32,000 nt of DNA, taken from an uncultured archaeon (GTDB lineage: Archaea; Asgardarchaeota; Thorarchaeia; Thorarchaeales; Thorarchaeaceae). The stretch covers positions 60,001-92,000 of the forward strand of contig CAZYLT010000003.1 in the NCBI GenBank assembly GCA_964648855.1, in the 5' to 3' direction. Below the pieces are notes generated by a model that was given only the letters and a program-made list of their open reading frames with translations, searched no databases and was not told the DNA's origin. Position numbers and translations under genes: made by a program. This document shows positions 1 to 14,179 of this stretch, one piece after another; position 1 is the stretch's first letter, and each line of letters starts with the position of its first letter.

Positions 1-2
1 CT

Positions 3-335
3 TTCGCTGAGCTGGGCGAACCCGATATTGAAACGGCAGAAGCAGTCCATACAGAAACCGACGAGGATGATATTGACGCCCTTGAATCGCATGTGCTTGG
101 GCTGATGGAGGAAGATGAACCCCTACCCAAACCAGTGTCACCTGATGGTGAAGTGTACTATGAAGAAGGTAGTAGCATTCCAGTCATTTTTGCTAGGACT
201 GCTGATAGAGGACCCTTACAACGAGCAGAAGATAATCTGTCCACAAATGGGAATGTGTCTCCAACTGATGAAACGTCAGCTCACGTGGTAGAGCGGATGA
301 TAAAGGGCAACAGCGGCAGCAAGAGAGGCGAATGA
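3..335 (+). CDS. 3' part of an ORF entering from the left edge; very acidic, low-complexity C-terminal tail; function unknown
   Basis: The frame is open from nt 3 (FAELGEPDIETAEAVHTETDEDDIDALESHVLGLMEEDE...) to TGA at 333-335. The next gene starts 1 nt later. Confidence 0.75.
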   Translation, partial: FAELGEPDIETAEAVHTETDEDDIDALESHVLGLMEEDEPLPKPVSPDGEVYYEEGSSIPVIFARTADRGPLQRAEDNLSTNGNVSPTDETSAHVVERMIKGNSGSKRGE

Positions 336-336
336 T

Positions 337-1014
337 TTGCTCGACAATCCACTGAACAAATTGACTCAAGAGAAAACGATTACCCATATCGGAGGAGCCA
401 GCGGATCAGGTAAGACCATTCTCGCCGCCGAGCTAGCAGCTCAGAAAAGCAGAACAAATTCAGTTGATTGGCTATGTGCTGATGGCAAAAGAGCCTTCAT
501 TGGATATCTGAAACGTGCTGTGAAATCCTCTGGCGGAGTTCAGAGCAATCTCATTCTAACTGTCGCTGATAATCATCAGGATGTCTTACAGTCAATTCTA
601 TCCACTCCCGATCGCCTAAGATCCAACACTGAATTCATCGTTGTTGATCCGATAACTAGGGTCTTGGATATGTCTCGTAAAGATGAGATTATGTGGGGCA
701 GAACTCTCTTCGAAGAAGCACTACCCACCCTTGTAGGTTTGAGCATTCAGAGGGACCTATCGCTTTTGATAACTAGCGAAGTGAGATTTAGGGGCGACAA
801 GACAACACCTGTATTCTGGGATACTCTCAGAACTTGGCTTGATGCTGACTTCTTAATCAAGAGACTACCCGATTCGAATATATCTGAAATCTATGACGTA
901 ACTGACCCGAATACTGAGAATTTCTTAACGAGTTTTACAGTGAATGAAGACGGGCTTCACTTTATTGAAGACGAATCCAAAAGGGGGACAAAGGAAAATT
1001 GCTCGGAGGAATAG
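337..1014 (+). CDS. RecA-superfamily ATPase, RadB / Rad51-paralog-like (core domain only)
   Basis: Walker A ITHIGGASGSGKT, strand ending WLCADG, Walker B FIVVDPIT, LLITSEVR strand and C-terminal FTVNEDGL hairpin typical of RadA/RadB. No N-terminal HhH domain. TTG start. Confidence 0.8.
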   Translation: MLDNPLNKLTQEKTITHIGGASGSGKTILAAELAAQKSRTNSVDWLCADGKRAFIGYLKRAVKSSGGVQSNLILTVADNHQDVLQSILSTPDRLRSNTEFIVVDPITRVLDMSRKDEIMWGRTLFEEALPTLVGLSIQRDLSLLITSEVRFRGDKTTPVFWDTLRTWLDADFLIKRLPDSNISEIYDVTDPNTENFLTSFTVNEDGLHFIEDESKRGTKENCSEE

Positions 1015-1952
1015 TATACCGCATAGTCAAATGGGCTATCATAGCTGCGGTTGCATTACTAATCGGCTCGCAGCTGATGTCCTCCGTGTATTCTATTGTG
1101 CTAGCGTTCAGATTGGGCAACTCAGTTCCCTTCATAGGAGTCTTACTTGTTGCTACAACTCTAGCCTGGCTATCAGGGAGAAATTACGATTGGAATCTGG
1201 CAGACCTTCTCATCAATGTCATTGCAGGTGTAGCTCTCACTCTTTCGATGCTCTCAGTCTTCTTTATACTTCTATCATATGGAGTTCTCATATCGATTAT
1301 CGGTAGCAGTGTTTATGTTGGACTTCTGACAATCATTCGTACACCGGAACTGGCTAAGCGAATGCATGAGAGCCAGATAGCAGGATCTCTTCAATATATG
1401 GATTGGATTTCTGGGACACAGAGCAAGGGTTTCTTGGTTCACAAGATGCTAGAAAGTCTGGACGTGTCGGTCTCCTTGCTGCCGACTGGGAGCATCAGCA
1501 GAATCCTGCCACTATTGAAAGATAGACCACGGCTTCCCATTGTCATTACCCATTTCTTGGATGCCGATGCTCTCTTTGTCAGAAACCCACACTCAGAAAA
1601 GATGAACAAAATCCTTGAGTTACTGAAAACCGTGGACGTGCTGCCGCTGAACACACCATCTAACTTTTTTTCGCGATTTATCCTGAGCCTTCCCATGTTG
1701 GACAATAGTGAATCCCATCATGATTACGTAGTTGTTCAAGATGCCTCTGCCGTCGAGAGGTTGCTATCAGAGGAGTTAGCAGAATTAACCCTCTACGCCT
1801 CTCCTATTGGGCCCGTAATGGTGGTCGCGAAAAGCGATGCCTTAGGGATGGATGCAGTTGACATCCCAAAACGCTATTTGCCAACTATCCTCGTCAAACG
1901 AGATATTGAGGGATTGTTATCTTCAATTGAGGTGGAGCCGGCTGCCAAGTAA
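999..1952 (+). CDS. Hypothetical membrane protein: about 4 N-terminal TM helices plus a soluble C-terminal domain of about 200 aa
   Basis: The first ~113 aa contain four hydrophobic stretches and the remainder is an alpha/beta-like soluble region. Overlaps both neighbours. Confidence 0.75.
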   Translation: MLGGIVYRIVKWAIIAAVALLIGSQLMSSVYSIVLAFRLGNSVPFIGVLLVATTLAWLSGRNYDWNLADLLINVIAGVALTLSMLSVFFILLSYGVLISIIGSSVYVGLLTIIRTPELAKRMHESQIAGSLQYMDWISGTQSKGFLVHKMLESLDVSVSLLPTGSISRILPLLKDRPRLPIVITHFLDADALFVRNPHSEKMNKILELLKTVDVLPLNTPSNFFSRFILSLPMLDNSESHHDYVVVQDASAVERLLSEELAELTLYASPIGPVMVVAKSDALGMDAVDIPKRYLPTILVKRDIEGLLSSIEVEPAAK

Positions 1953-2670
1953 GACTCTCACTCTAGACAACGCAGAGGAGAATGACCTATCAATAGTGGC
2001 TCTATCCCCCAAGAAATTACAGCAACTCTTGGGGAAAACATTGGTGCCAGGTGAAATATCCCTCCTGCATGGAAGGGAACGATCTCTCTTGACTCTGTTG
2101 ACTCATTTGATATGTACAAACATAGGAATTTCAGGTCAGAGTGCCCTCTATCTGGACTCGGGTCGTAATTTTTCCCCACTCATCATTAACAAGATGCTAA
2201 AAACTCTCTCCAAAAAAGAGAGTGCAGAAGTGCTCTCAAGAATATCGGTAGGAGAGGTCTATAATTTGGAAGATATTGAAACAATTTCTTCACAGATTGA
2301 CGCGGTTGATGGTCCATCACTAATTGTCCTTGACAATCTAACAGGATTGCTGAATTTATCAACCTCTCCAGGAAAGAAGGGCAGGCAGCGTCGGTTATTC
2401 GCTGCTCTAGACGAAACAAGACGCCTCGTGAACAGAAGAAATGTCCACGTACTAATAACCGACCATTCAACAGCTGATTGGCAATCTGGTAGCTTCAAGC
2501 CTATCGGCGGCAATGTGGTCGCGCACGCGGTGGACTCATTGAGCCTTGTAACAAAAGTAGAAACTGAAGATATTGTGAATATCAAGGTTGAACGTTCTCC
2601 CCATGTGAACGCCCCTGCAGGCATATTGGTTAGACTCAATCATCGGGGTGCCTTTGAACTGGAGGCTTAG
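1942..2670 (+). CDS. RecA/Rad51-fold protein with degenerate Walker A (probably ATPase-dead paralog)
   Basis: LQQLLGKTLVPGEISLLHG(RERSLLT) has no GKT lysine. ALYLDSGRNFSP, Walker B LIVLDNLT, VLITDH and PIGGNVVAHAVD match RadA/Rad51 motifs. The start is probably CTG 1942 (after GAGGTGGAG) or TTG 1927 rather than ATG 1852. Confidence 0.8.
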   Translation: MPSKTLTLDNAEENDLSIVALSPKKLQQLLGKTLVPGEISLLHGRERSLLTLLTHLICTNIGISGQSALYLDSGRNFSPLIINKMLKTLSKKESAEVLSRISVGEVYNLEDIETISSQIDAVDGPSLIVLDNLTGLLNLSTSPGKKGRQRRLFAALDETRRLVNRRNVHVLITDHSTADWQSGSFKPIGGNVVAHAVDSLSLVTKVETEDIVNIKVERSPHVNAPAGILVRLNHRGAFELEA

Positions 2671-2672
2671 GG

Positions 2673-3662
2673 GTGGGAGTCGGGCATTGGGATTTCATCC
2701 ATTTTCACTGGCATGATGTCGAAGAAATCTCTCCTCGAGTTATAGCCATTGACACCCCAAACTACATGATTCGCAGAATGCAAGCCTTCGAGTACCGGGC
2801 AAAAATAACGAGCGAACGTGTGCCTTCAGCTCATATCTATGTTGCACTCAGTATAATCCGCGCCTTCCTAAAATCCGACTTCATACCTATTTTTGTTTTT
2901 GATGGGCCACCAGAATCTCTTAAACGTCCTACGAACCCTCAGTTGGTCGCACTAGCCAGAGATGCCTATGAACGTTTTAGTGAACGACAAGACATTTACG
3001 ATACACATCTTGCCCATAATCTTTGGGAGAATCGGCCTCTACGCTGGTATTTTGCCGTGCTTCATATTAAGGACCTATGCAGTAGCATTGGAATTCCCTC
3101 TTTTACCGCCCCTTCTGAGGCTGAAATGATGGCCGCCTCAATATGCCGAAATGGTCTTAGCGGTTCAGTCTTGTCCAATGATGTCGATACATTGCTTTTT
3201 GGAAGCCCATATTTATCCCGTGCCGTTAAGATGAGTTGTGGCGAGGTGGAGTCAGCAACACTAGGTCGGATTATGCACGAGGTTGGAATCGACCTTGAGC
3301 TCCTTCGCGACTTGGCAATTGTGACAGGTTGTGATTTCCACAAGGGAATAAAGGGAATCGGCCCGCGAAAAGGTGTCGTGCTTCTACAGCGTTTCGGTGG
3401 ACTTGAGGGATTGCTAAAAGCGAGAGGGTTCGGAGTAAGCGACCGCGAGGAATTTCTCAGCGCTAGACAAGTGCTGGACGAGGCTGACTATTTGTCCGTG
3501 AATCGAGTTAATACTAGATTGAATGCTCCTATTGAGTCAAGAATTATTGAGATTCTTTCTCCTATAATGGCAAAAGAAAAAGCTGAAAAACAAGGCAGGG
3601 AACTCGTGAATTTCTGGAAGGATTTTGGCAAAAGCCAAGCCACTCTTGAGAGATGGACCTGA
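2673..3662 (+). CDS. FEN1/XPG (Rad2) family 5' structure-specific nuclease, divergent paralog, with C-terminal PCNA-interacting (PIP) box
   Basis: N-terminal MGV, IAID, PIFVFDG, APSEAE, SNDVDTLLFG and H3TH motif GCDFHKGIKGIGPRKG. C-terminal QATLERW. Confidence 0.9.
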   Translation: MGVGHWDFIHFHWHDVEEISPRVIAIDTPNYMIRRMQAFEYRAKITSERVPSAHIYVALSIIRAFLKSDFIPIFVFDGPPESLKRPTNPQLVALARDAYERFSERQDIYDTHLAHNLWENRPLRWYFAVLHIKDLCSSIGIPSFTAPSEAEMMAASICRNGLSGSVLSNDVDTLLFGSPYLSRAVKMSCGEVESATLGRIMHEVGIDLELLRDLAIVTGCDFHKGIKGIGPRKGVVLLQRFGGLEGLLKARGFGVSDREEFLSARQVLDEADYLSVNRVNTRLNAPIESRIIEILSPIMAKEKAEKQGRELVNFWKDFGKSQATLERWT

Positions 3663-3674
3663 CCAGACCCGAAT

Positions 3675-5435
3675 CTAAGTCCAAGGATTCTTGAAAGAAT
3701 TATCCCTGTTGTTCAATGATTTGTCAAGGACAGTAAGATAGTAATTTTTCTTCTCTTTTACAACACCGACTAGAATATCCATGTCTTCTAATCTGCTTTC
3801 TATAACACCTTTCACTACTCCAACTTTATGAAGTGGGATTCGAATATGAAGAACCGCATTTCGGCCAGTTTGACTCGACCGTGTTTGAACATATGGCATC
3901 CTGCAGTTTAGCCAACTACATATGCTATCAATGTCCTCGGGGTCACAATCTTTGATGACTATTAGAATCTCATCTGGCAGTGCATTATAGGATGGTTGTG
4001 GATGATAGAGCACAGAGAGTGCCTGCTGATTCAACAGTATTCGAAGATTCATTCGTGCGGTTGAAGGAGGATATCCCATCATGTCAAGGAAACCGTACTT
4101 GTCCTGTGGCCCTCCCTCATTTGCCAGCAGGATCATGATTAACTCTAGTTGGCTGGGCGTTAAGGCGAGTAGATCTGCGCCTCTCTTGCTTTCCGCATAG
4201 AGCCAACTGTCATGCTCCGCAGGTTTATCGTTACACTCGTACCTCCACGGTTCCACTTTCCACTCATTTGTGTCCAGATTGAATAAATCCAATCGGAATG
4301 AAACCGACTCGAGTTCCGTTCCAATGTGATATGCTATGGAACGCCCCGTCTTCGGCCCACCAGCATTCATGGGTTCAATATGTGTTTCAACCGCAGCGTA
4401 GTCGCCATCAATGAGAGTTCGCTTCTCTACGATACTGTCAGAAACAGGGTCGAGAGACGAGTCAGTGGTGAAAATGTATCGGTACCTCAAGCCAATCCGT
4501 TGCAGATTGGGAATGAATTGTTCTTCAAGTCCTCGCTCGAAGACCCGTCCCTTATACCGTGCACTGCGGTTGGAGACACTTAGTGCTTGCTGAACTAGTC
4601 TGCTAGTGATTTTGGGCTGTGGTTCTAGACCAGTCATCGATTGTATCACAGCGACCATTTCCCTGTTGAGTATGCAAGTTGAGGACGCTAACCGCTGCAA
4701 AACCTCTCTATACGATTTCCTCCTAGGATGGAGCAATGCCCCGTCAAATCTTGGGATAGTAGGGGAGATTGAAGTTAGCGGGAGAGCTAGGTCACTTGGG
4801 TTGTGCAGGGCAGTAATCCATTTCAGCTTTTTCATGCTACCTCGCGTAAGAACTAACAATGAGAAAAGAGCAGCTGTAAATGGGTCTAATACCTCGAATT
4901 CGTCAACCCATGAAGCTGTACGTGGGAGATACCCCATGATATGCCGCGACAATACATAGGCTAGACTGTATCTGATGTGTAATTCACTAAGAACCTCTTT
5001 TCTAATGAGCGGGTGATACTTGTTTGACTCTTTAATCCCCTTAGAATAAGCTGTCCTGTCTATGCTGAGTGAGTTAGTATATTGGGTGAGATCTTGCAGA
5101 ACTACCTCGGGGTGATGAAAGTCTCCAGACCCAACCTCTTTCGCAATGCGCTCGGGAAACTCACGTCCTATGAAGAACGTCGTTGGTAATAGGGATGATG
5201 CTTGCTGCCAAAGAGTATTCCCAATTGGAACAACTCCCGCCTCCTCTGCATCAGTCTTTCTATAGATAATTTGTTCATGAACTGGCTCTCCTGAAAGTGG
5301 GTCCAGACCAAGATTCTTTTCAAACTTAGCAAGATCCGGCTGGTCATTCATATCCCTGTTGAGATAGGTTTCAACAAGGAATCTGTCGGGATAGAAGCTC
5401 TGAGAATCACGAAGATAGCTTTTCAGCAGTTCCAT
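3675..5435 (-). CDS. Large putative transcriptional regulator with two Lrp/AsnC-like (wHTH + RAM) modules and an unknown N-terminal region
   Basis: First module: HTH-like ITSRLVQQALSVSNRSARY followed by FIPNLQRIGLRYRYIF. Second module: LTPSQLELIMILL...MMGYPPSTARMNLRILLNQQAL followed by PSYNALPDEILIVI. ORF of 586 aa. Confidence 0.55.
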   Translation of the reverse strand: MELLKSYLRDSQSFYPDRFLVETYLNRDMNDQPDLAKFEKNLGLDPLSGEPVHEQIIYRKTDAEEAGVVPIGNTLWQQASSLLPTTFFIGREFPERIAKEVGSGDFHHPEVVLQDLTQYTNSLSIDRTAYSKGIKESNKYHPLIRKEVLSELHIRYSLAYVLSRHIMGYLPRTASWVDEFEVLDPFTAALFSLLVLTRGSMKKLKWITALHNPSDLALPLTSISPTIPRFDGALLHPRRKSYREVLQRLASSTCILNREMVAVIQSMTGLEPQPKITSRLVQQALSVSNRSARYKGRVFERGLEEQFIPNLQRIGLRYRYIFTTDSSLDPVSDSIVEKRTLIDGDYAAVETHIEPMNAGGPKTGRSIAYHIGTELESVSFRLDLFNLDTNEWKVEPWRYECNDKPAEHDSWLYAESKRGADLLALTPSQLELIMILLANEGGPQDKYGFLDMMGYPPSTARMNLRILLNQQALSVLYHPQPSYNALPDEILIVIKDCDPEDIDSICSWLNCRMPYVQTRSSQTGRNAVLHIRIPLHKVGVVKGVIESRLEDMDILVGVVKEKKNYYLTVLDKSLNNRDNSFKNPWT

Positions 5436-5806
5436 AGAATTCTATTACTCCTTCGACCCACTCGTTTTTGATTTCCACGAAACTTGTCATGAAATTTTGT
5501 TAGCATCTATTCATCCCTATGTAGTGGTTTGCCTGTTTGGAGTCATTGTAGCTGCAATATCTTGCCTTCGCTTTCGATGATTGATTATTTCTCCAGAGCA
5601 GCAAAGTATGTAAAAGTAGATATTTGTTGTGCCGTTTGCGATGATGAAGAGTTACTATGGGGTCTATAATATCTTAATATGGTCATAAAACATCTCTAAA
5701 CACTTCAATTTGTTTCTTTAATAACAATATATGCGTATAAGTTAAATTGTGTGTTATCAACCTTTCTTTTGGACTAGCGTATATCTTTAGTATCTATCTT
5801 TCTAGC

Positions 5807-5826
5807 ATACTCTCAGACGAGAGTAT
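5807..5826. promoter_or_regulatory. Perfect 8-bp inverted repeat over the translation initiation region of the 5832 gene
   Basis: ATACTCTC-AGAC-GAGAGTAT, ending 5 nt before ATG 5832. Confidence 0.4.
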
Positions 5827-5831
5827 CACAA

Positions 5832-6431
5832 ATGGTTGAAATAGATCCAGTGACAATGGTGATTGCTAATTTGCTATTTGCGGTTCAAATCGCGCCTATA
5901 GTTGTTGTAGTGGTAACTATCATTCGTTCATTTGTTCTACTCCGAGGGCGAAAGAGGGAGTTCGAGGATTGGACAAGAAACCCACTGATGACTGGCCTTT
6001 CTATTGTGTTCCTTCCAGGCACGCTCATCTATACTGCAATAAGATATGTCATCACAAGTGTCCTACAGGTTGATGTGCGGCAAGTTGGGGGGTCCTCGAC
6101 CTATGGGGAGCTGAATCTGTTTTTAGTAGTAGGGCGTGTTCCGAGAGTAGGAGTGGTACTTCTTGCTCTTTTCTCGACAATCGTCCTCACAATCTTCGTG
6201 GCTCTAACCGTGGTTACAATTCCTTTCTTTCTGCTGCTGGACCTTTCCATCAATCTGGTCTGTTGGTACATAGCTGTTGCAGTCCTGTTCAATGCGTCAT
6301 TTCGCAGCGGAGATGCAGAACTTGTAACAAAGGCGCTGAGAGAACGTCCACGCTCGGGAGCTATCGAATTGGTGGCTTTTGTAACAGTGCTCGTATTCAT
6401 CTACTCACATTTTATCGGGGTGACCAATTGA
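5832..6431 (+). CDS. Polytopic membrane protein resembling M50B/DUF3267-like zinc metalloproteases but lacking HExxH
   Basis: About 5 TM segments. FLPGTLIYTAIRYVITSVLQVDVRQV aligns by eye with the family pattern PGxxxHExxH...xxV. WYIAVAVLFNASFRSGDA aligns with the late W...A(F)PSxxD motif. Confidence 0.55.
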   Translation: MVEIDPVTMVIANLLFAVQIAPIVVVVVTIIRSFVLLRGRKREFEDWTRNPLMTGLSIVFLPGTLIYTAIRYVITSVLQVDVRQVGGSSTYGELNLFLVVGRVPRVGVVLLALFSTIVLTIFVALTVVTIPFFLLLDLSINLVCWYIAVAVLFNASFRSGDAELVTKALRERPRSGAIELVAFVTVLVFIYSHFIGVTN

Positions 6432-9400
6432 GAAAGAAATTCATCCTTGTCTACCTAATTGGATTGCTCATATTACTGCCATCCAATACTACTGGAAATT
6501 CAAAGCAAAGACCTGCGTCAGCGCCCCTTATTTCTCCCAGTTTGTCAGAGCTCACAGGAGATTCAGCCAACATGGGCGACTATCTTCTCCTTGAAGCGTC
6601 TGGTCAGGTCATTCCTGAAAAGGGAATTGCTGTTTCTGAAAGGCTTTCAGCACGAGGTCTCTCAGTCCAGATAGTTGATATCGCTGATATTATGATGCAA
6701 CACGAATTGGTGAAGCACGCTCCTGTTCTTATTCTGGACTCAAGCCTTGGATCAGACCAGGGTACAGCAATCAGTGCTGATATTGTTTCTTTGCTCATCA
6801 AATACGACCGACCAGTCGTGTTGCTCGGAAATGCTTGCTGGTTGACTCATAGGTTTAGAGGTGACAATCAAACCGCAGAAACTGCTCCTGTCGAGGGCAA
6901 TCTTTACTTTGCGTCCTCTCAGGCTGGCTCAGTATACTTTTCGTCACCACACCCAATGGTTAATGGGTCCCCCCTTACAACGGAAACTCTGCACCTTCCT
7001 GTGGATCAACCGCAGACAGAGAGGTCAAGGCTTGTTAATTTAACACAAACTCAGAGTAACGATGCCTTAACTTCACTGAGATACGAGTCTTGGCCTCTCG
7101 ATTCTTTTTTGGTGGGAATGGAAGACCCCTCACAATGGTCAGCTGAAGGCACATCATTTCTAGTTAACATCATTGCATATGCGACTGCAATGTCTGAGTC
7201 GAGGCTATCATCCACTATAGCTGATTCACAGAGTGATGGCACCTTTGCAGGCGGATTCGCATATCCCCATACCCCTACAATGGATGCCACCTATCATGCC
7301 ATCAAGATTGCTCATAATTTGCTTAATGATTCTGAATGGACTGTCTGGGTCAACAATCATTCATCAGAGATCATCAATATCCTCGATTCTATGTTTTTCG
7401 ACTTCGGTGCTGAGGCTGGGTTTAGTGGGAATCCATGGAGTTCGACAGTGAGTCTTACAGACACAGCAAATGGACTATGGGCCGTGGAGGTCTGTAATCT
7501 TCAAGCGGAGTTTCCCACAAACGAGCTAGTATCCTATATTAGCACAAGACAAGAGGGTGACGGGGGTTTTGGCAACTCAGTCGATATCACTTTCTATGCA
7601 ACAGAGGCACTATTTGCAACTGATAGCTTATCAACCATAGATCTTCAAGAACTAGGATACTGGCTTGAAGACTGTGAGATAACCAGCGGTGACGCTCCTT
7701 CACAACCTGAGAAATGGGGTGGCATCGCAAAGAATCCCAGTAGTTCTATCCCAACGAATATGTACGCGATGTATGCCGTCTTAGCAAGGAATCTCATGTC
7801 AAATCCTCATAATGACCAAAAGCTGGTTGAATGGATTCTTGACACGTCTAATCCGGACGGATCCTTTTCCAACTCATTAAACTCAGGCGATTCACTGGTG
7901 AGAGGAACTGCCTCTGCGCTAACTAGTCTCAAAGTCAAGGGGCAGCTGTCATCAGCAAATCATACCAACGGACTGGCTTGGCTTGAGGCCAATCAGCTGG
8001 ACTCCGGTGGGTATGGCGTTGATAACAAGAGCTCTGATATCCTCGCAAAAACCAGCGAGACTTCTCTTGTATCATTGACATTGATGTGGTTAGAAGAACA
8101 AACGAATATTGTTGGCATGAATATTCTGGACTATCTTATATCCATTGACAGTGCTGCTGGATTTGAGCTAATGGAACCAGCCTCATCCCTTATGTGGAGC
8201 TCGTATATGAGCAGGTCTTCTCGTTATGCCCATGCTGGTGGGATTGTTGATGTAGATGGTATGAATTCGTATCGGGCAATGTTCTCCTCATTCAGCATTT
8301 ACCCTCCCTTTGGCAATTTCTCGACCGCACACGCTCCTGAATATATGATTAATCAATATTGGACGAATAGTGTTTGGACTCAGCTGTTTGGAGCAATAAT
8401 GTCTACTGAAATTGGTGCCCCCATATCCCCATCAGTTGAATCAGCGGTAGTGCAATACATTCAACAGTGTGAGAATGATGGGGATCACTACCAACAAAAG
8501 ACGATGTCATTTGACCGACGGATGCAATTCACTGTTGCAGCAATAGAAACTCTGTATCTTCTAGATCGCCTTGATGCAATCCAGTATCGTGCGTCCATAG
8601 AGAATCTCATCATGGCAGACTACAATGAAGGCACATGGGACTCGGCAGATTGGAGTCTTCGCCCCTTCGCAGGGACACAATCTGCAATCGACTACCTTAG
8701 TACACGAGCCGCCATGCGATTGGGTTTGGTCGATGAAACAATTGCGGCTGAAATAGAGTCAGTCGTGAACACAAGAATACAGTATTCTGACCTATGGGCA
8801 TTGAGTAGAGATGTGGCTCTCCTTTCTCTCCTCTCCACCGAATTCTCTGTGTCATTTGATGCCATTGATGCTTCTCAAATTCTCAATGCCTTGGGCCCCT
8901 CCCCCTTTGCTAACGGATGGTATAATTCCACAATCTCGTATCAACCAGTATTCACAGCAGATATCATGGAAATGATCTCTATCCTTGGCCTGAGAAACCC
9001 GGTGTTCGATGTTGCGGGAACTCAGCTGTCTGCATCTATGCCGACTCAGGCTCAATTAGGTGGAACGGTATCGATTGATGTTAGCCTAAATTCAAGTTCA
9101 GGGACAGCCACCATCTTTGTTAGCGCATTCGGTAAATGGACAAGATTCGATAATGTGACGAACGATGAGGTTCTAGTCTTAGATGTGTCTTCTAATGCAT
9201 CATCACTAGGTGCTCACGACATATTTCTGATGCTCTGGAACGAGGGAGAATCCCGATCTTTTCATCTCGGTATCATCGAAGTAGTGGGCACCCTAAATGG
9301 GTCTATGACCCTTGAAACACCTTTTGTGCTGACTGGGGATTGGGTTAACGCTACGGTAGAATGGTGGATTTGTTCTGGGGTCGATGCAGGAATAACAAAC

Positions 9401-12400
9401 ATCACTATTCGACTTGGCACATTAACCGAATACCAAGAGTGGTATGCTTCTGATTCCAGTCCGTATGCCCTTTCAATTCCAAGCGATGGTGTTTCATGCG
9501 GTGTTCACAACCTTACAGTGACACTGGAAAGAGAAGACTGTTCTAGTTTGATTCTCCAAGACCATGTAGAGGTTCATCCAGCTGACCTTACGTACATCTC
9601 CTCAATAGCAGACATTGACGGCAAAATGAATACAGAGTTGGTCATTCCAACATCTTTGCATTTTTCAGAAAATGGCACATTCATCGCAGACCAACAGGTA
9701 TCACTTGAAATCAAAGATGAGTTCGGAACAATTGTCTTCGCAGACTCGATTATTTCTCGGGATACAGTACAAGAGTTGTTATGGGCTCCACGCCAGATGG
9801 GTCATTATTCGTTTGGCTTATTCTTCGAGAGAAATGGCACATTGGAAGAATCAACTTTCACTGGATTCTTGCACATCTATCAAGATACTAATCTAACATG
9901 GACTGAAATCGGGACCGCCAACCAGTATTCAACAATTCAAGCATCTGTGGAGTTAACTGACCAATCGGGTGAGCCTTTGGCGGGACAGGCAGTTATTCTA
10001 TCAGTATTCAATCCAGATTCAGCTTTAATCGTCAATGAAACAGCGATTACGAATTCGACCGGATATGCAAGTGTTTCTGTTCAATTGGCAGAAAATGGTC
10101 ATTACACTATCTATGCCGAGTTTTCCGGATTTGAGCTTCTCTCCCCGTCTCTAGAGACAGCAACATTTGTTTCATATACAGACACATCTGTGTCAATTGA
10201 TGGCATCGAGTCAGGGTTAGTGAATACAACCTGGCTCATCCATGCTAGATTGGAGGACTCTGCAGGGTACCCTCTTGATGGACTACAGGTAACTCTCACA
10301 ATCACACTCTTGCCCTCAACTCTTATACTCGAACAAACTCTGACGACGAATGCAACTGGAGATATTATTCTCCAATGGACCGCAGATATCGCTGGTGGAT
10401 ACCTTGTGGAGGCAACATTCACTGGTTCTGTATCTAGGGGTTTTTCAGCTGACTCAGTGACGATAGACCTCAGAATCCCCATCATACATCACATTTCTTT
10501 ATCCGGCGGTTTCGAGGTCGGCCGGGAGGCTTGGGTCAGTGTTGCAGCCGAGGATCACACCCAAACACCGGTGAATAGTATCACGGTCCAGTTCGTCGTC
10601 AGAGACCCAGTTGGAGATATTATCTTTACTGACTCAGCCATCTTAGACAATGGACTTGCAAACTTCTCTTGGACACCTACTGTAAGAGGAGCAAACACAA
10701 TTACAATCTCCAATGGTAATGAACACTGGTATAATGCCTCGGAATCAATAGAAATAGTAGACGTATTTGAGCAACCTGAAATCTATTCGAGTCTGCAAAA
10801 TGTGGCGATTGCTCCCCTGACGAACTTGCTCTTAGTTCATGTAATGGACTCCTCAGGAACACCAGTCAATTCAGTCACACTTCATATATCCATTTGGCTA
10901 AACGAGATTCCCATACTTGACTCTACCAATATCACTGATAGCAATGGCAATACATCTGTGTTGATGTCGCTAGTAGAACCAGGCGAACTAGAAATATGCG
11001 TGTCTATGGCTCAGCAAGACCATCTCCTCGCAGCAGAGAGTAGCTTGATTTCATCCGTTCTTGCATCAACAACCATCGAAATCAACCTAAGTGGACTTCC
11101 AATCAGTCAGGGACAAGTGTTGCCAATATCGGTTTTACTCCTAGATTGGCTTGACGCTCCACTTTCAGGTGCGACCGTCTTGATATCAGTGGAGAATGCA
11201 ACTGGATATGTTGTCGAATCTGATACAAGGATAACAGGTAGCGATGGAACTTGCGTAATGGCGTATACCTGCTCTATTGTGGGGGACTTTGTGATTCGTG
11301 CAGAGTATGCAGGTTCCATGCTGAATGCCTCTTCTGAGGATTCACAATTACAACGGGTCACCGTTGTTCCCGACATTGTTCTTGAAAATGACCCAACCGC
11401 AGAAGTTGGGACCGCCTTCCAGTTTTCAGTTGGGATTCTTGATAATCTGGACGATTGGATTGCTGGAAGGAGCGTGACACTAACAATAGGGCAAGATGGA
11501 GCAACAATCTTCGAAAGTCAAAAGCTAACAGTTGATGGGTTGGTGATCTTTTCATGGACTCCTGTTGAACGAGGGCCATACGTTATCACTATCATCCATA
11601 ACGGAGACGGCTACCATTATCTTTACAGTGATACACAAACCGATCTCAATGCGCTAGAGCAGGTTGGTGGTAGTATTACATTATCTACCGATTCGATTGA
11701 CGTATTTGATGAGATCAGCCTTTCCTATGAGTTGACAGAATCTTCTCAGATACAGGGAGTTAGTATTCTATTCGAGGTCCTTGATATGGATTTGATTCCA
11801 CTATGGGATATGACCTGCAGCACAGATTCAAACGGGATTGCAGTTGTCAATTACACAGCAGAACACGCTCATGGTGATCTAGTAGTCAGAGCTGAACCTG
11901 TTGAGGGGCAATTCCTGTTGGGAGGATTTACACAGGACCAGTTCATCGCGAAGACATTCTGCCATCTCGGTTCAGAGATTTTACCCTCTCCTCCTGTGAT
12001 AAACCAAGAAACGACACTTCTTCTTTCTGGAAAAAGTGACCTCGGAACATCCCTGGGTGATGTGACTGTTCGTGTAGAAATCAAGAGGGGACAACAACAA
12101 ATCGTACTTGATTACGTTACTCTCGTGAATGGTACAGCAAATGTGCTCTTCACACCTTCAGAAAAGGGTCTGTACTCGGTCGAGGTGCGCATTAGTGAAT
12201 CTCCCTTGTATTATGCTCTCATTGATGAGTTTTATCACACGATATACTGTCCAACTACTTTGGAGATCGTAGATATCGACAGCATTCTCGAGATTGGAGA
12301 TACTCTAACAGTCACCGTTCAATTAACTAATGAATTGGATGGAACTATGGAGGGTCAGACTGTAACGCTATCTCTCGGGTCCATTCTGGGGCCGATTGAT

Positions 12401-14179
12401 TTAATTACAGACGAGGATGGACTCGTAACGTGGAAACCCACAGTCGATGTAGAAGGAGAATTCATTCTTACTGCTACATTCTCGACTTGGGAAACTTACC
12501 TCGCTTCATCCATTGAAGCAGAGGTTGATGTCAATTTTGGTACAATATTGCAGGTAGATGATTTATCCACCGATATTCTCGTTGCTGGAATCGCACCTTT
12601 GAACATGAGCTTCCTGTTGACTGATACGGATGGAAGTCCACTCGAAGGTCGCACGGTGAATGTTTCACTATATCACGATGAATTTGGAATCATGGAGCAG
12701 TTTTCTTACATTCAGCAGGGTTTCTCTGATGAACTCGTGCAGATTATGTTTGAAACGATGGGACACTACACAGTATTAGTTAGATTTGAGGGAACCGAGC
12801 ATTACCATCCCAGCAGTTCTGCGATAGACGTCTTTGTCTTTGGGACTACTTCATTGGTCATTGATGCACCAACATCAGTCGACCGAAGCAAGAATGAGAA
12901 TATCACTATCACTCTTGTAGATGAACTGGGTGAAACGCTGGACCCTTTGATGCTCTCATATTCAGTAACTCTCATCGGGGCATCCAACTCTCTGGAGAAT
13001 CGTCTAACTGTTGAAAACGGTGTCATAGCAATACACCTCTTAGGTTTGGAATGTGGAACTTACTCTCTCTCAGCTGTCGTCGATGATTCAAAAACAAGAT
13101 TGGGTTCCACCAGCAGTGCTACGTTCAATATCACGAGTCAGGCTCATTTCAATATCACATCTCAAAAAATCAACGGACTGATTCATAATGATCATTGGAT
13201 TAGGCTGAAGGTTGAGGACTCGTTGAACCAAATTATCAGTGATGCTACGATTGAAGTGAGCCTTTGGGCACCTGATGGTCGGGAAATCTATGGCTCTTTT
13301 CTGAGCACTGTCACATTACTTCAGACCGATGAGGGTTGGGCTGAGATTGCATGGATGCCAAACAGAATCGGGAATTACTCCCTAGTTGTTCGTTATCAGG
13401 GAACCAAACACGTTGAAAATGCCACATTACATAGGATAATCCTAACCCGCCACAAAACAAATTTTGCTACGGAGATTCCCGAGGCGATTTCTTATCCGGA
13501 AGACCTCAGGTTCACTATGGAGCTGCAATATGAAAATGGCCCTTTGGTGAATGCAAGTGTCCTTCTTTCGGTCGTCAGAGATAGCCAAATATTGCACACT
13601 GCATCACAGAAAACGAGTTTTGCAGGCATAATTGCCTTTGAGGTTGCAGGTCTTCAGAGTGGAAACTACACTGTTATCCTAGAATATGAGGGCTCGAGTG
13701 ATTTCTCCGACTGCACACTTGTTACTGATTTAGTTGTGCAACCCGATGTTAACCTGGAACTGTCAGTGCTCAGCATGCCATATGTCCAAGTGAAGGGTGA
13801 CCTTCAGCTATCACTAGTCATTAGGGGCATTGATTCTCTATGGACAGGTACACTCATCATGGAAATAGTGAGTGATGGAGGCTTCTCTGAGAGATTACTT
13901 GAAACTGTCGTAGGACCAAATGTCACCAAGAGTATCTCTGTCCTATTGGAGCAGGAGGGGAATTACACAATTAGATATGGTGTCACTCATGTTCCTCTAC
14001 TTGGAGATGTGTTCCTATCATCTAGCATAGTCATAACAGGTCCACCGCTGACCATTCCGATGGATGAGGCGAGCTTTCCCGTTGCAGTCAGTGGTATTGT
14101 CTTGGCTGTCATTGGAGTTATTCTAAAGAAGCGACTAGGTGTCGCTCTGGAATCACTTCCAGTAGATTGGGATTCCTGA
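6428..14179 (+). CDS. Giant cell-surface glycoprotein (2583 aa): signal peptide, small alpha/beta domain, prenyltransferase/squalene-cyclase-like alpha/alpha barrel repeats, about 15 Ig-like repeats, C-terminal TM anchor
   Basis: TTG 6428 gives the signal peptide MRKKFILVYLIGLLILLPS and overlaps the upstream TGA. QW-like repeats: RQEGDGGFG, NPDGSFS, NQLDSGGYG. Recurring ~100-aa units LxDxxGxP(L/V)xGxxV...TxxxG. Many NxS/T sequons. TM FPVAVSGIVLAVIGVIL followed by KKR. Confidence 0.85.
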   Translation: MRKKFILVYLIGLLILLPSNTTGNSKQRPASAPLISPSLSELTGDSANMGDYLLLEASGQVIPEKGIAVSERLSARGLSVQIVDIADIMMQHELVKHAPVLILDSSLGSDQGTAISADIVSLLIKYDRPVVLLGNACWLTHRFRGDNQTAETAPVEGNLYFASSQAGSVYFSSPHPMVNGSPLTTETLHLPVDQPQTERSRLVNLTQTQSNDALTSLRYESWPLDSFLVGMEDPSQWSAEGTSFLVNIIAYATAMSESRLSSTIADSQSDGTFAGGFAYPHTPTMDATYHAIKIAHNLLNDSEWTVWVNNHSSEIINILDSMFFDFGAEAGFSGNPWSSTVSLTDTANGLWAVEVCNLQAEFPTNELVSYISTRQEGDGGFGNSVDITFYATEALFATDSLSTIDLQELGYWLEDCEITSGDAPSQPEKWGGIAKNPSSSIPTNMYAMYAVLARNLMSNPHNDQKLVEWILDTSNPDGSFSNSLNSGDSLVRGTASALTSLKVKGQLSSANHTNGLAWLEANQLDSGGYGVDNKSSDILAKTSETSLVSLTLMWLEEQTNIVGMNILDYLISIDSAAGFELMEPASSLMWSSYMSRSSRYAHAGGIVDVDGMNSYRAMFSSFSIYPPFGNFSTAHAPEYMINQYWTNSVWTQLFGAIMSTEIGAPISPSVESAVVQYIQQCENDGDHYQQKTMSFDRRMQFTVAAIETLYLLDRLDAIQYRASIENLIMADYNEGTWDSADWSLRPFAGTQSAIDYLSTRAAMRLGLVDETIAAEIESVVNTRIQYSDLWALSRDVALLSLLSTEFSVSFDAIDASQILNALGPSPFANGWYNSTISYQPVFTADIMEMISILGLRNPVFDVAGTQLSASMPTQAQLGGTVSIDVSLNSSSGTATIFVSAFGKWTRFDNVTNDEVLVLDVSSNASSLGAHDIFLMLWNEGESRSFHLGIIEVVGTLNGSMTLETPFVLTGDWVNATVEWWICSGVDAGITNITIRLGTLTEYQEWYASDSSPYALSIPSDGVSCGVHNLTVTLEREDCSSLILQDHVEVHPADLTYISSIADIDGKMNTELVIPTSLHFSENGTFIADQQVSLEIKDEFGTIVFADSIISRDTVQELLWAPRQMGHYSFGLFFERNGTLEESTFTGFLHIYQDTNLTWTEIGTANQYSTIQASVELTDQSGEPLAGQAVILSVFNPDSALIVNETAITNSTGYASVSVQLAENGHYTIYAEFSGFELLSPSLETATFVSYTDTSVSIDGIESGLVNTTWLIHARLEDSAGYPLDGLQVTLTITLLPSTLILEQTLTTNATGDIILQWTADIAGGYLVEATFTGSVSRGFSADSVTIDLRIPIIHHISLSGGFEVGREAWVSVAAEDHTQTPVNSITVQFVVRDPVGDIIFTDSAILDNGLANFSWTPTVRGANTITISNGNEHWYNASESIEIVDVFEQPEIYSSLQNVAIAPLTNLLLVHVMDSSGTPVNSVTLHISIWLNEIPILDSTNITDSNGNTSVLMSLVEPGELEICVSMAQQDHLLAAESSLISSVLASTTIEINLSGLPISQGQVLPISVLLLDWLDAPLSGATVLISVENATGYVVESDTRITGSDGTCVMAYTCSIVGDFVIRAEYAGSMLNASSEDSQLQRVTVVPDIVLENDPTAEVGTAFQFSVGILDNLDDWIAGRSVTLTIGQDGATIFESQKLTVDGLVIFSWTPVERGPYVITIIHNGDGYHYLYSDTQTDLNALEQVGGSITLSTDSIDVFDEISLSYELTESSQIQGVSILFEVLDMDLIPLWDMTCSTDSNGIAVVNYTAEHAHGDLVVRAEPVEGQFLLGGFTQDQFIAKTFCHLGSEILPSPPVINQETTLLLSGKSDLGTSLGDVTVRVEIKRGQQQIVLDYVTLVNGTANVLFTPSEKGLYSVEVRISESPLYYALIDEFYHTIYCPTTLEIVDIDSILEIGDTLTVTVQLTNELDGTMEGQTVTLSLGSILGPIDLITDEDGLVTWKPTVDVEGEFILTATFSTWETYLASSIEAEVDVNFGTILQVDDLSTDILVAGIAPLNMSFLLTDTDGSPLEGRTVNVSLYHDEFGIMEQFSYIQQGFSDELVQIMFETMGHYTVLVRFEGTEHYHPSSSAIDVFVFGTTSLVIDAPTSVDRSKNENITITLVDELGETLDPLMLSYSVTLIGASNSLENRLTVENGVIAIHLLGLECGTYSLSAVVDDSKTRLGSTSSATFNITSQAHFNITSQKINGLIHNDHWIRLKVEDSLNQIISDATIEVSLWAPDGREIYGSFLSTVTLLQTDEGWAEIAWMPNRIGNYSLVVRYQGTKHVENATLHRIILTRHKTNFATEIPEAISYPEDLRFTMELQYENGPLVNASVLLSVVRDSQILHTASQKTSFAGIIAFEVAGLQSGNYTVILEYEGSSDFSDCTLVTDLVVQPDVNLELSVLSMPYVQVKGDLQLSLVIRGIDSLWTGTLIMEIVSDGGFSERLLETVVGPNVTKSISVLLEQEGNYTIRYGVTHVPLLGDVFLSSSIVITGPPLTIPMDEASFPVAVSGIVLAVIGVILKKRLGVALESLPVDWDS

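Follow-up and report, generated by a model that had tools for sequence, protein, structure and literature searches.

What is a run of recombination genes doing around a membrane-protein gene in an Asgard archaeon? The question is raised by positions 3 to 3662 of a 32,000-nucleotide stretch of Thorarchaeota DNA (the window, G000:C3:60001-92000), taken from a genome that is 94.6% complete. Five + strand open reading frames (ORFs) were verified there, at 3-335 (5′ end open), 337-1014, 999-1952, 1942-2670 and 2673-3662. An initial annotation had read them as a four-gene module in which two Rad51 paralogs, one of them ATPase-dead, are coupled to a membrane protein and a FEN1/GEN1-like nuclease. The coupled ORFs stand, but they are the 3′ tail of a 14-15-gene operon: the coupled run spans C3:48413-63662 (14 genes, 15 kb) and starts ~11.6 kb before the window, and the full unit is a 14-17-gene system rather than a module of four. 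The reading we favor, with moderate confidence, is that the operon encodes a domesticated machine derived from a type IV secretion system (T4SS), with which DNA received from a contacted cell is recombined into the chromosome at the membrane by a second recombination set of the operon's own.

Nine complete genes and the body of TM566 precede the window on the same strand, joined by overlaps or few-base gaps. The first, u237 (237 amino acids, aa), has no known identity, and the same holds for u197 (197 aa). The others, likewise on the + strand, encode a full-length RadA paralog with its helix-hairpin-helix (HhH) domain (346 aa), a Zn-ribbon/winged helix-turn-helix protein (141 aa), an XPD/Rad3 helicase (653 aa), a transmembrane (TM) protein of ~200 aa (TM200), a 94-aa protein, an ATP-dead TM protein with a VirB4 fold (770 aa) and, directly before TM566, a Hel308-SWIM helicase (732 aa). 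TM566 (G000:C3:58635-60335, + strand) is a 566-aa protein with two central TM helices, and window positions 3..335 encode its acidic, poorly conserved C-terminal tail. Had this partial gene encoded a HerA/VirB4-like ATPase, DNA transfer would have gained support; a gene with that fold is indeed present in the operon, but it lies two genes further up and its Walker A motif is lost.

Gene order was compared in 20 loci from 13 Thorarchaeota genera, chosen by a match to the membrane protein at 999-1952 (TM317, also called 4TM here). It was unchanged in all 20, as the initial annotation would have it. TM566-RadB1-4TM-RadB2 were found in this order in 20/20 loci and were followed by the FEN1-family gene in 19, the remaining locus stopping at a contig end; conservation on this scale argues that the arrangement is not due to chance. 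One locus lacks u197, and most carry an extra gene of ~155 aa that has no counterpart in this genome. In genome G131 a second RadA-like ORF (L052:16856-17968; 370 aa, 28% identity) heads the operon where others have u237. The RadA paralog of the operon retains Walker A and, in most rows, the F-x-x-G polymerisation motif, the DEAH motif of XPD is kept in 17/18 rows, and 20/22 rows of the Hel308 copy include a SWIM motif. Outside the operon the genome encodes a canonical RadA, a RadB that is more typical, two further FEN1 proteins and additional Hel308-like and XPD proteins, and the operon enzymes are therefore a dedicated spare set.

The two RecA-fold genes flank TM317. RadB1 (337..1014, + strand; 225 aa) is a core-only RecA fold with an intact Walker A and without the N-terminal polymerisation strand, while RadB2 (1942..2670, + strand; 242 aa) is a RecA fold without Walker A. 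These motif states, which had been called from this one sequence, hold in 21 of 21 RadB1 homologs (intact) and 0 of 21 RadB2 homologs. RadB2 starts with a CTG at window:1942-1944, preceded by a strong ribosome-binding site (GAGGTGG), and homolog starts align there; the mechanically called ATG start at 1852 is probably wrong. In another Walker A detail, a gene at the RadB2 position in a sister family has the motif intact, so its loss from RadB2 looks recent and lineage-specific. The first proposal, that the two are Rad51 paralogs in the eukaryotic sense, was not supported. RadB1 matched the RadB model TIGR02237 with E 1.5e-7, below the cut-off, and PDB RadB 2cvf with E 1.4e-5; RadB2 matched Pfam Rad51 with E 2.2e-11; and the TIGR02237 scores of the two were 31.5 and 46.7 bits against a cut-off of 172.4. 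When PDB profiles were ranked, RadB came out best for ORF 337 and RadA/DMC1 for ORF 1942, with RAD51D lower. A tree of RecA paralogs, built from non-eukaryotic rows, has open deep nodes and unsettled bootstrap values. Archaeal RadB is a mediator for RadA (PMC5480776). The operon pair resembles it in having a core-only RecA fold without the N-terminal HhH domain, and differs in lying far below the family cut-off, in being two paralogs around a membrane gene, and in coexisting with the more typical RadB. Another Walker-A-less Rad51-fold gene (256 aa; L076:574-1344, G000:C5:72574-73344) is convergent with a gene for a 5058-aa surface protein.

How might the two proteins work together? At the position of the RecA-family catalytic Glu (aligned by eye), RadB1 has D49, an Asp in 18/19 homologs, and on this ground RadB1 probably binds ATP but hydrolyses it weakly. 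RadB2 has an invariant P187, G189, G190 and H195, which correspond to the PxGG...H segment of RadA/Rad51; in RadA/RAD51 filaments this segment caps the ATP of the neighbouring subunit. When the two were modelled together, a head-to-tail complex was predicted with a score of 0.74, versus 0.00 for the best control; a score of this size was attained by 58 of 80 solved pairs and by 2 of 110 mismatched pairs. Separate runs shared at least 80% of contacts, with a partner pLDDT (predicted local distance difference test) of at least 83. In the model the N-terminal strand of RadB2 (residues 4-13) lies on RadB1 residues 55-75, and the capping segment points towards the RadB1 P-loop. The interface anticipated for the pair was thus predicted, although the passing score may reflect likeness to solved RecA-family dimers, because the predicted polar geometry is that of RAD51C-XRCC3. 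RAD51C-XRCC3 (CX3) is itself a polar dimer held by an N-terminal strand and the ATP-sandwich face (PMC10366140). The predicted pair would share these features, together with an ATP-dead partner, with RAD51C-XRCC3, Rad55-Rad57 and Shu; there is also a SWIM motif nearby, although here it is fused to Hel308. The best matches of the pair, RadB and RadA/DMC1, lend no support to orthology with the eukaryotic RAD51 paralogs. RadB1 would end a filament and RadB2 would bridge to the operon RadA.

The last gene of the operon (2673..3662, + strand; 329 aa) is the third FEN1-family gene of the genome. All seven acidic residues (D27, D77, E149, E151, D170, D172 and D221) are invariant in 20/20 rows, and a C-terminal motif resembling a PCNA-interacting peptide (PIP) is found in 19 of 21 Thorarchaeota homologs, with Q322 and L325 invariant. 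Profile scores were 178 bits for archaeal FEN1, ~156 for human FEN1 and 92 for human GEN1. Its C-terminus is at the PIP motif, with no extension of chromodomain length beyond it, and the arch region of the operon nuclease has the length of that in FEN1; the arch of GEN1 is 12 residues (PMC4695337). By these sequence features the nuclease is a FEN1 paralog and not GEN1, and the GEN1-like label was withdrawn. GEN1 and Yen1 differ from the Thorarchaeota protein in both arch and chromodomain, and only the orthologs in family f7 (L058:5757-6572 and L059:11418-12224) lack the helical arch, a GEN1-like trait, while keeping the acidic active site. The fold, acidic active site and PIP motif are those of FEN1, and the beta-hairpin of canonical archaeal FEN1 is missing from the operon paralog and from the genome's second copy, as it is from eukaryotic FEN1 and from Asgard Fen1-2, in which its loss has been described (PMC12680538). 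The operon copy is nonetheless the most divergent of the three (102 bits vs 431 and 337). Of the two basic gateway residues that serve flap threading (human K93/R100), K84 is kept, but the residue seven positions on is Leu in 18/18 Thorarchaeota rows; the nearly invariant R85 may stand in for the replaced second Arg. The second copy (L078:908-1879, G000:C14:48908-49879) also lacks a PIP motif and may be the published Fen1-2.

Between the RadB genes lies TM317 (999..1952, + strand; 317 aa), whose model (mean pLDDT 83.6) has four N-terminal helices that are hydrophobic and of membrane length, in line with the four predicted at the outset, followed by a soluble duplicated ferredoxin-like domain; as modelled, this domain is probably cytoplasmic. 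The protein had no match in Pfam or NCBIfam and belongs to no known family. It was expected that, were the coupling spurious, the membrane protein would turn up in a family that occurs independently of the repair genes. A full profile search of 1.84 billion proteins gave 85 matches; of those that were near-full-length, two of the weakest lay in the same operon, and TM317 was seen only in this operon (35 of 43 genomes of the family, with no match in any other family searched). NCBI names its homologs as Candidatus Thorarchaeota. Fold matches were all below Z 8: the VirB4 N-terminal domain (7o42) had Z 6.8 with a root-mean-square deviation of 4.1 over 160 aligned residues, and chains of the type VII EccE region had Z 6.4-7.2, and both tied with unrelated flavoprotein ferredoxin-like domains. 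In the ESM Atlas neither TM317 nor TM566 had a usable match, and for TM317 an atlas fold search stayed below a TM-score of 0.45 and Foldseek on PDB gave no E <0.001, which is not proof of a new fold. Two candidate relationships lacked support. The profile of TM317 did not match the VirB4-N modules encoded in the operon, which speaks against a VirB4-N paralog, and a match (probability 63, E 7e-5) to a four-TM protein of 404 aa, which occupies the TM317 position in the sister family, vanished once the TM part was removed. Proteins with four or five TM helices adjoin a RadB-like gene in families f2, f7, f8 and f19, with weak or undetected homology to TM317.

TM566 gave nothing significant as a profile against PDB, and its resemblance to a degenerate restriction-nuclease fold was seen by eye only. 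Proteins at the TM566 position in f9 (L064:4914-6725) and f19 (L054:2030-3928) have two TM helices after a domain of the same appearance, also judged by eye, and the f9 protein begins with an HhH domain, which hints at a membrane DNA-binding subunit.

The T4SS connection comes from the 770-aa protein. Its model best matched full-length VirB4 of R388 (Foldseek E 4.5e-13), with a TM-score of 0.69-0.71 by target against Thermoanaerobacter pseudethanolicus VirB4, and its C-terminal tail is a PadR/MarR-like winged helix. A paralog whose motifs are intact is encoded on another contig (G000:C4:59920-63669); this two-TM VirB4/HerA ATPase of 1249 aa shares the ATPase-winged-helix layout of the 770-aa protein (hhalign E 4.4e-4). 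Its best NCBIfam matches are CedD (2e-13) and CedB (4.5e-9), both below cut-off, and its gene is present in 37 of 39 genomes of the family. In seven of seven family loci read, this gene stands beside genes for an immunoglobulin (Ig) surface protein, a TadA/VirB11-type ATPase and a TFB paralog. The 1249-aa paralog may supply a motor in trans. Both it and the operon are near-universal in the family, which makes their co-occurrence uninformative.

Two genes further along the window were counted into the system because a sister family has both inside its operon. The 199-aa polytopic membrane protein (5832..6431, + strand) resembles an M50-type intramembrane protease without HExxH, a link that comes from a weak Pfam match in a similar protein of another family and from inspection. 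In 20 genomes its gene follows TM317 at a distance of 3-6 kb, on the same strand, and in the sister family it lies between TM566 and RadB1; the protein is probably part of the system. The start of the next gene overlaps its stop and encodes a 2583-aa surface protein (6428..14179, + strand) with an alpha/alpha-toroid head, many Ig-like repeats and a C-terminal TM anchor (Pfam matches Big_1, Big_3_5 and Prenyltrans). This giant gene occupies the same position in other Thorarchaeota and, in the sister family, stands with the 199-aa gene directly before RadB1, within the operon. The giant protein is a candidate adhesin for this machinery. In four further families, too, the VirB4-like gene is flanked by genes for large proteins with terminal TM helices. 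In one f19 locus (L054:6308-8974) the head of the surface protein is M28 peptidase-like instead of an alpha/alpha toroid, and the head appears exchangeable.

Is the association confined to Thorarchaeota? Homologs of the 770-aa protein were found in about ten other Asgard families, Jordarchaeaceae among them by source names, and rearranged versions of the operon in at least seven. The 770-aa homologs adjoin the same Hel308 subfamily in f2, f7, f8, f9, f12, f15 and f19 and a RadA paralog in f2, f7, f10 and f19, with a FEN1 paralog in the same cluster in f2, f7 and f19; RadB-like genes and large surface proteins are also present, in shuffled order, and small TM genes precede the VirB4 module. Since these neighbours persist, the link between the VirB4-like and recombination genes survives rearrangement. 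A word-based search outside Asgard archaea with a Jordarchaeaceae-type dead ATPase as query returned 13 close relatives of the query only. A match in f22 (L065) looks like an ordinary HerA and was left out of the counts.

From the observed gene content, gene order, motif states and folds, together with the predicted RadB dimer, we infer the following path for DNA. The giant Ig-stalked surface protein would make contact with another cell, and the membrane proteins, TM317 among them as one subunit, would form a platform around the VirB4-fold protein. That protein, having lost ATP binding, would hold DNA by its C-terminal winged helix, while force might come from the two operon helicases, which are of opposite polarity, or from the intact VirB4/CedD-like paralog. 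RadB2 is predicted to dock head-to-tail on RadB1 and complete its ATP site, and the pair would nucleate or cap a filament of the operon RadA paralog, as RAD51C-XRCC3 does for RAD51. After strand invasion, the FEN1 paralog, with its conserved active site, would trim branched ends on PCNA. The window genes RadB1, RadB2 and FEN1 would thereby provide these last two steps.

Several observations weigh against DNA import. The G-x4-GK[ST] Walker A motif is absent from 17/17 Thorarchaeota and 16/16 other homologs of the 770-aa protein, many fold matches of which are HerA proteins; HerA-type proteins serve repair and defence too. The intact paralog is on another contig and is tied to the operon by shared ancestry alone. 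No DNA channel was identified; TM317, TM566, TM200 and the 199-aa protein had zero Pfam/NCBIfam matches, and VirB6/TrbL, ComEC and DprA were not found in the 94.6%-complete genome. The direction of transfer, moreover, is not readable from sequence.

These points feed the most serious of the other explanations, a membrane-anchored hub for repair or chromosome handling in which no DNA crosses the membrane. A ring of pseudo-VirB4 and the TM proteins would tether stalled forks or late recombination intermediates, for example at division, for processing by the helicases, the RadA paralog, the RadB pair and the FEN1 paralog. All enzymes with intact motifs are of cytoplasmic repair type, the transport ATPase is dead everywhere, neither channel nor pilin was found in the operon, and the operon is single-copy, near-universal in the family and housekeeping-like. 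A hub nevertheless leaves unexplained why a full duplicate of the housekeeping enzymes is kept and why a giant extracellular protein is encoded inside the sister family's operon and, in other families, next to the VirB4-like gene, and we consider it unlikely, if clearly worth pursuing. The same parts could also be run in the opposite direction: in donor-side or two-way mating, likened to distributive conjugal transfer, the helicases and nuclease would make single-stranded chromosomal DNA for export via cell junctions, with the RadA set protecting or pairing it. The VirB4 fold is compatible with export, and a relaxosome could be dispensable if two helicases and a nuclease took its place, as has been proposed for HerA-NurA in Ced and Ted (PMC9905601). 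The EccE likeness of TM317 would fit too, but is weak (below Z 8), and the combination of a recombinase, two partners resembling mediators and a flap nuclease that binds PCNA suits integration in a recipient better, which makes export improbable.

A HerA-like protein with helicases and a nuclease might instead serve in defence, or be left over from a mobile element that had integrated. Many fold and profile matches of the 770-aa protein are anti-phage HerA proteins, and the genes evolve fast (21-30% identity for TM317 and 29-42% for RadB1 within one family). This is hard to reconcile with a single-copy operon of fixed order, whose RadB1 ortholog is present in 31 of 39 family genomes that are at least 90% complete; true loss in a congener, the one gap examined, was rejected, as the contig begins inside the giant gene (an assembly break). 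GC content is also that of the genome (46% vs 45%), no tRNA is adjacent, and no integrase-like ORF was seen among annotated operon and flanking genes, so that we regard this origin as very unlikely. At least as improbable is that the envelope proteins and the spare repair enzymes, unrelated in function, share only their regulation and form no single machine. Some f9 loci do keep only the helicase beside the membrane genes. Against this reading, genes of the two kinds alternate along the operon, their stops and starts overlapping, and they are still interleaved after reshuffling in f2, f7, f8 and f19.

If import of DNA is the function, how does the operon relate to the known import systems of archaea, in which damage induces the uptake of chromosomal DNA? 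Ced of Sulfolobales and Ted of Thermoproteales are chromosomal, T4SS-derived DNA import systems with a membrane-bound core of the VirB4/HerA family, and are tied to homologous recombination (PMC9905601, PMC11823120). Both are regarded as domesticated T4SSs, with herA and rad50 in Ted loci (PMC9905601), and in cedD crosses only cedD-positive cells become recombinants (PMC11823120). The Thorarchaeota operon is likewise chromosomal by its single copy, its order fixed in 13 genera, its genome-like GC and its lack of an adjacent tRNA, and the unlinked 1249-aa paralog scores best on the CedD and CedB models. In contrast, Ced and Ted loci encode an active VirB4-like ATPase (CedB/TedB), whereas the operon protein is ATP-dead and carries a winged helix, and the operon clusters its own RadA with a pair of RadB-like proteins, both helicases, the FEN1 paralog and the giant Ig protein. 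For the CedA/VirB6 channel, no NCBIfam/Pfam match was obtained in the operon TM proteins and TrbL was not found in the genome, a miss that carries little weight as CedA and TedA share only 13% identity (PMC9905601); no small two-TM pilin gene of the CedA1/VirB2 type (CedA1/TedC) was recognised in the operon. Its ATPase being dead, the operon is not a Ced member, and neither CedA/VirB6 nor a pilin was found in it. The novelty lies in composition; if DNA is imported, the mode of action would be like that of Ced.

Helicase-driven import has a precedent in natural competence. In Gram-positive bacteria (ComEC, ComFA, DprA, RecA), membrane uptake is coupled to recombinase loading and is served by an SF2 helicase-like motor. 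The membrane core of the operon differs in being VirB4-derived, and ComEC and DprA had no match in the 94.6%-complete genome, in which controls were detected.

Thorarchaeota are Asgard archaea, the closest relatives of eukaryotes; how genes are exchanged in this group, and from what eukaryotic sex arose, are questions without an answer so far. Published work has described a second RadA clade (PMC12722695) and additional Fen1 copies (PMC12680538) in Asgard archaea, without genomic context or function. Here, spare RadA and FEN1 copies are found together in a conserved operon whose other genes encode membrane, surface and VirB4-derived proteins, and this holds for many Asgard families. A doubtful extension is that the operon is a branch of an ancestral, Asgard-wide exchange of chromosomal DNA between cells, with its own recombinase and mediator dimer, an archaeal ‘proto-sex’ in the lineage leading to eukaryotes; this would explain both the second RadA clade and the extra FEN1 copies. 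The predicted RadB heterodimer, dedicated RadA, SWIM-helicase and pseudo-ATPase scaffold form a parts list that can be tested without a Thorarchaeota culture. Even a repair hub would be a membrane-tethered recombination complex on a dead secretion motor, without a described counterpart in the literature searched, and no published description of this operon was found, most subscription papers being outside the literature coverage.

Other loci may bear on the system. The conserved locus of the 1249-aa ATPase (L073:4920-14288, G000:C4:59920-69288) comprises, besides that gene, a TFB paralog, a TadA/VirB11-type ATPase, a 659-aa Ig protein and, in this genome, a 66-aa Flp-like pilin ORF between neighbours (L073:11218-11418, - strand). 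By analogy with TFB3-Ups-Ced, it is a candidate partner locus and regulator. In f19 (L094:11285-15353) and f7 (L059:2039-4173) the cluster also contains genes for an MglB/roadblock-like protein and an MglA-like small GTPase, together with a conserved gene of ~240 aa and, in f19, a TPR-like gene; this set may act as a polarity switch by which the machine is positioned. The VirB4-like gene of f10 is preceded by two M50-like membrane genes (L071:9543-11476), of which one retains HExxH. Eight DUF87 matches were found in the genome overall, and three HerA-like clusters (G000:C9:8919-15336, C29:8627-15310 and C10:59102-65614) have Mre11-like, Rad50-like and NurA-like neighbours by inspection.

Immediately downstream of the operon, a gene for a 586-aa protein of no known family (3675..5435, - strand) is convergent with the operon and divergent from the 199-aa gene. 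It occurs at the same place in 17 of 20 loci, and the protein is possibly a regulator, though this is a guess. Large opposite-strand proteins flank the operon on both sides (window:3675-5435 and L032:16204-18192), and only the downstream one is kept in position. A scan for sigma-70 promoters and terminators stayed at chance level, with models unsuited to archaea, and a search for fusexins gave no match, although its controls gave none either. Sequencing runs that contain window DNA are microbial mat metagenomes; no RNA run is listed among them, which speaks neither for nor against expression. A public contig is identical over window 1-6600, with zero differences; it may be from the source sample. 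In a related strain (run X4) substitutions crowd the 3′ end of the gene for the FEN1 paralog (window:3541-3647), and 12 bases are inserted after 6504.

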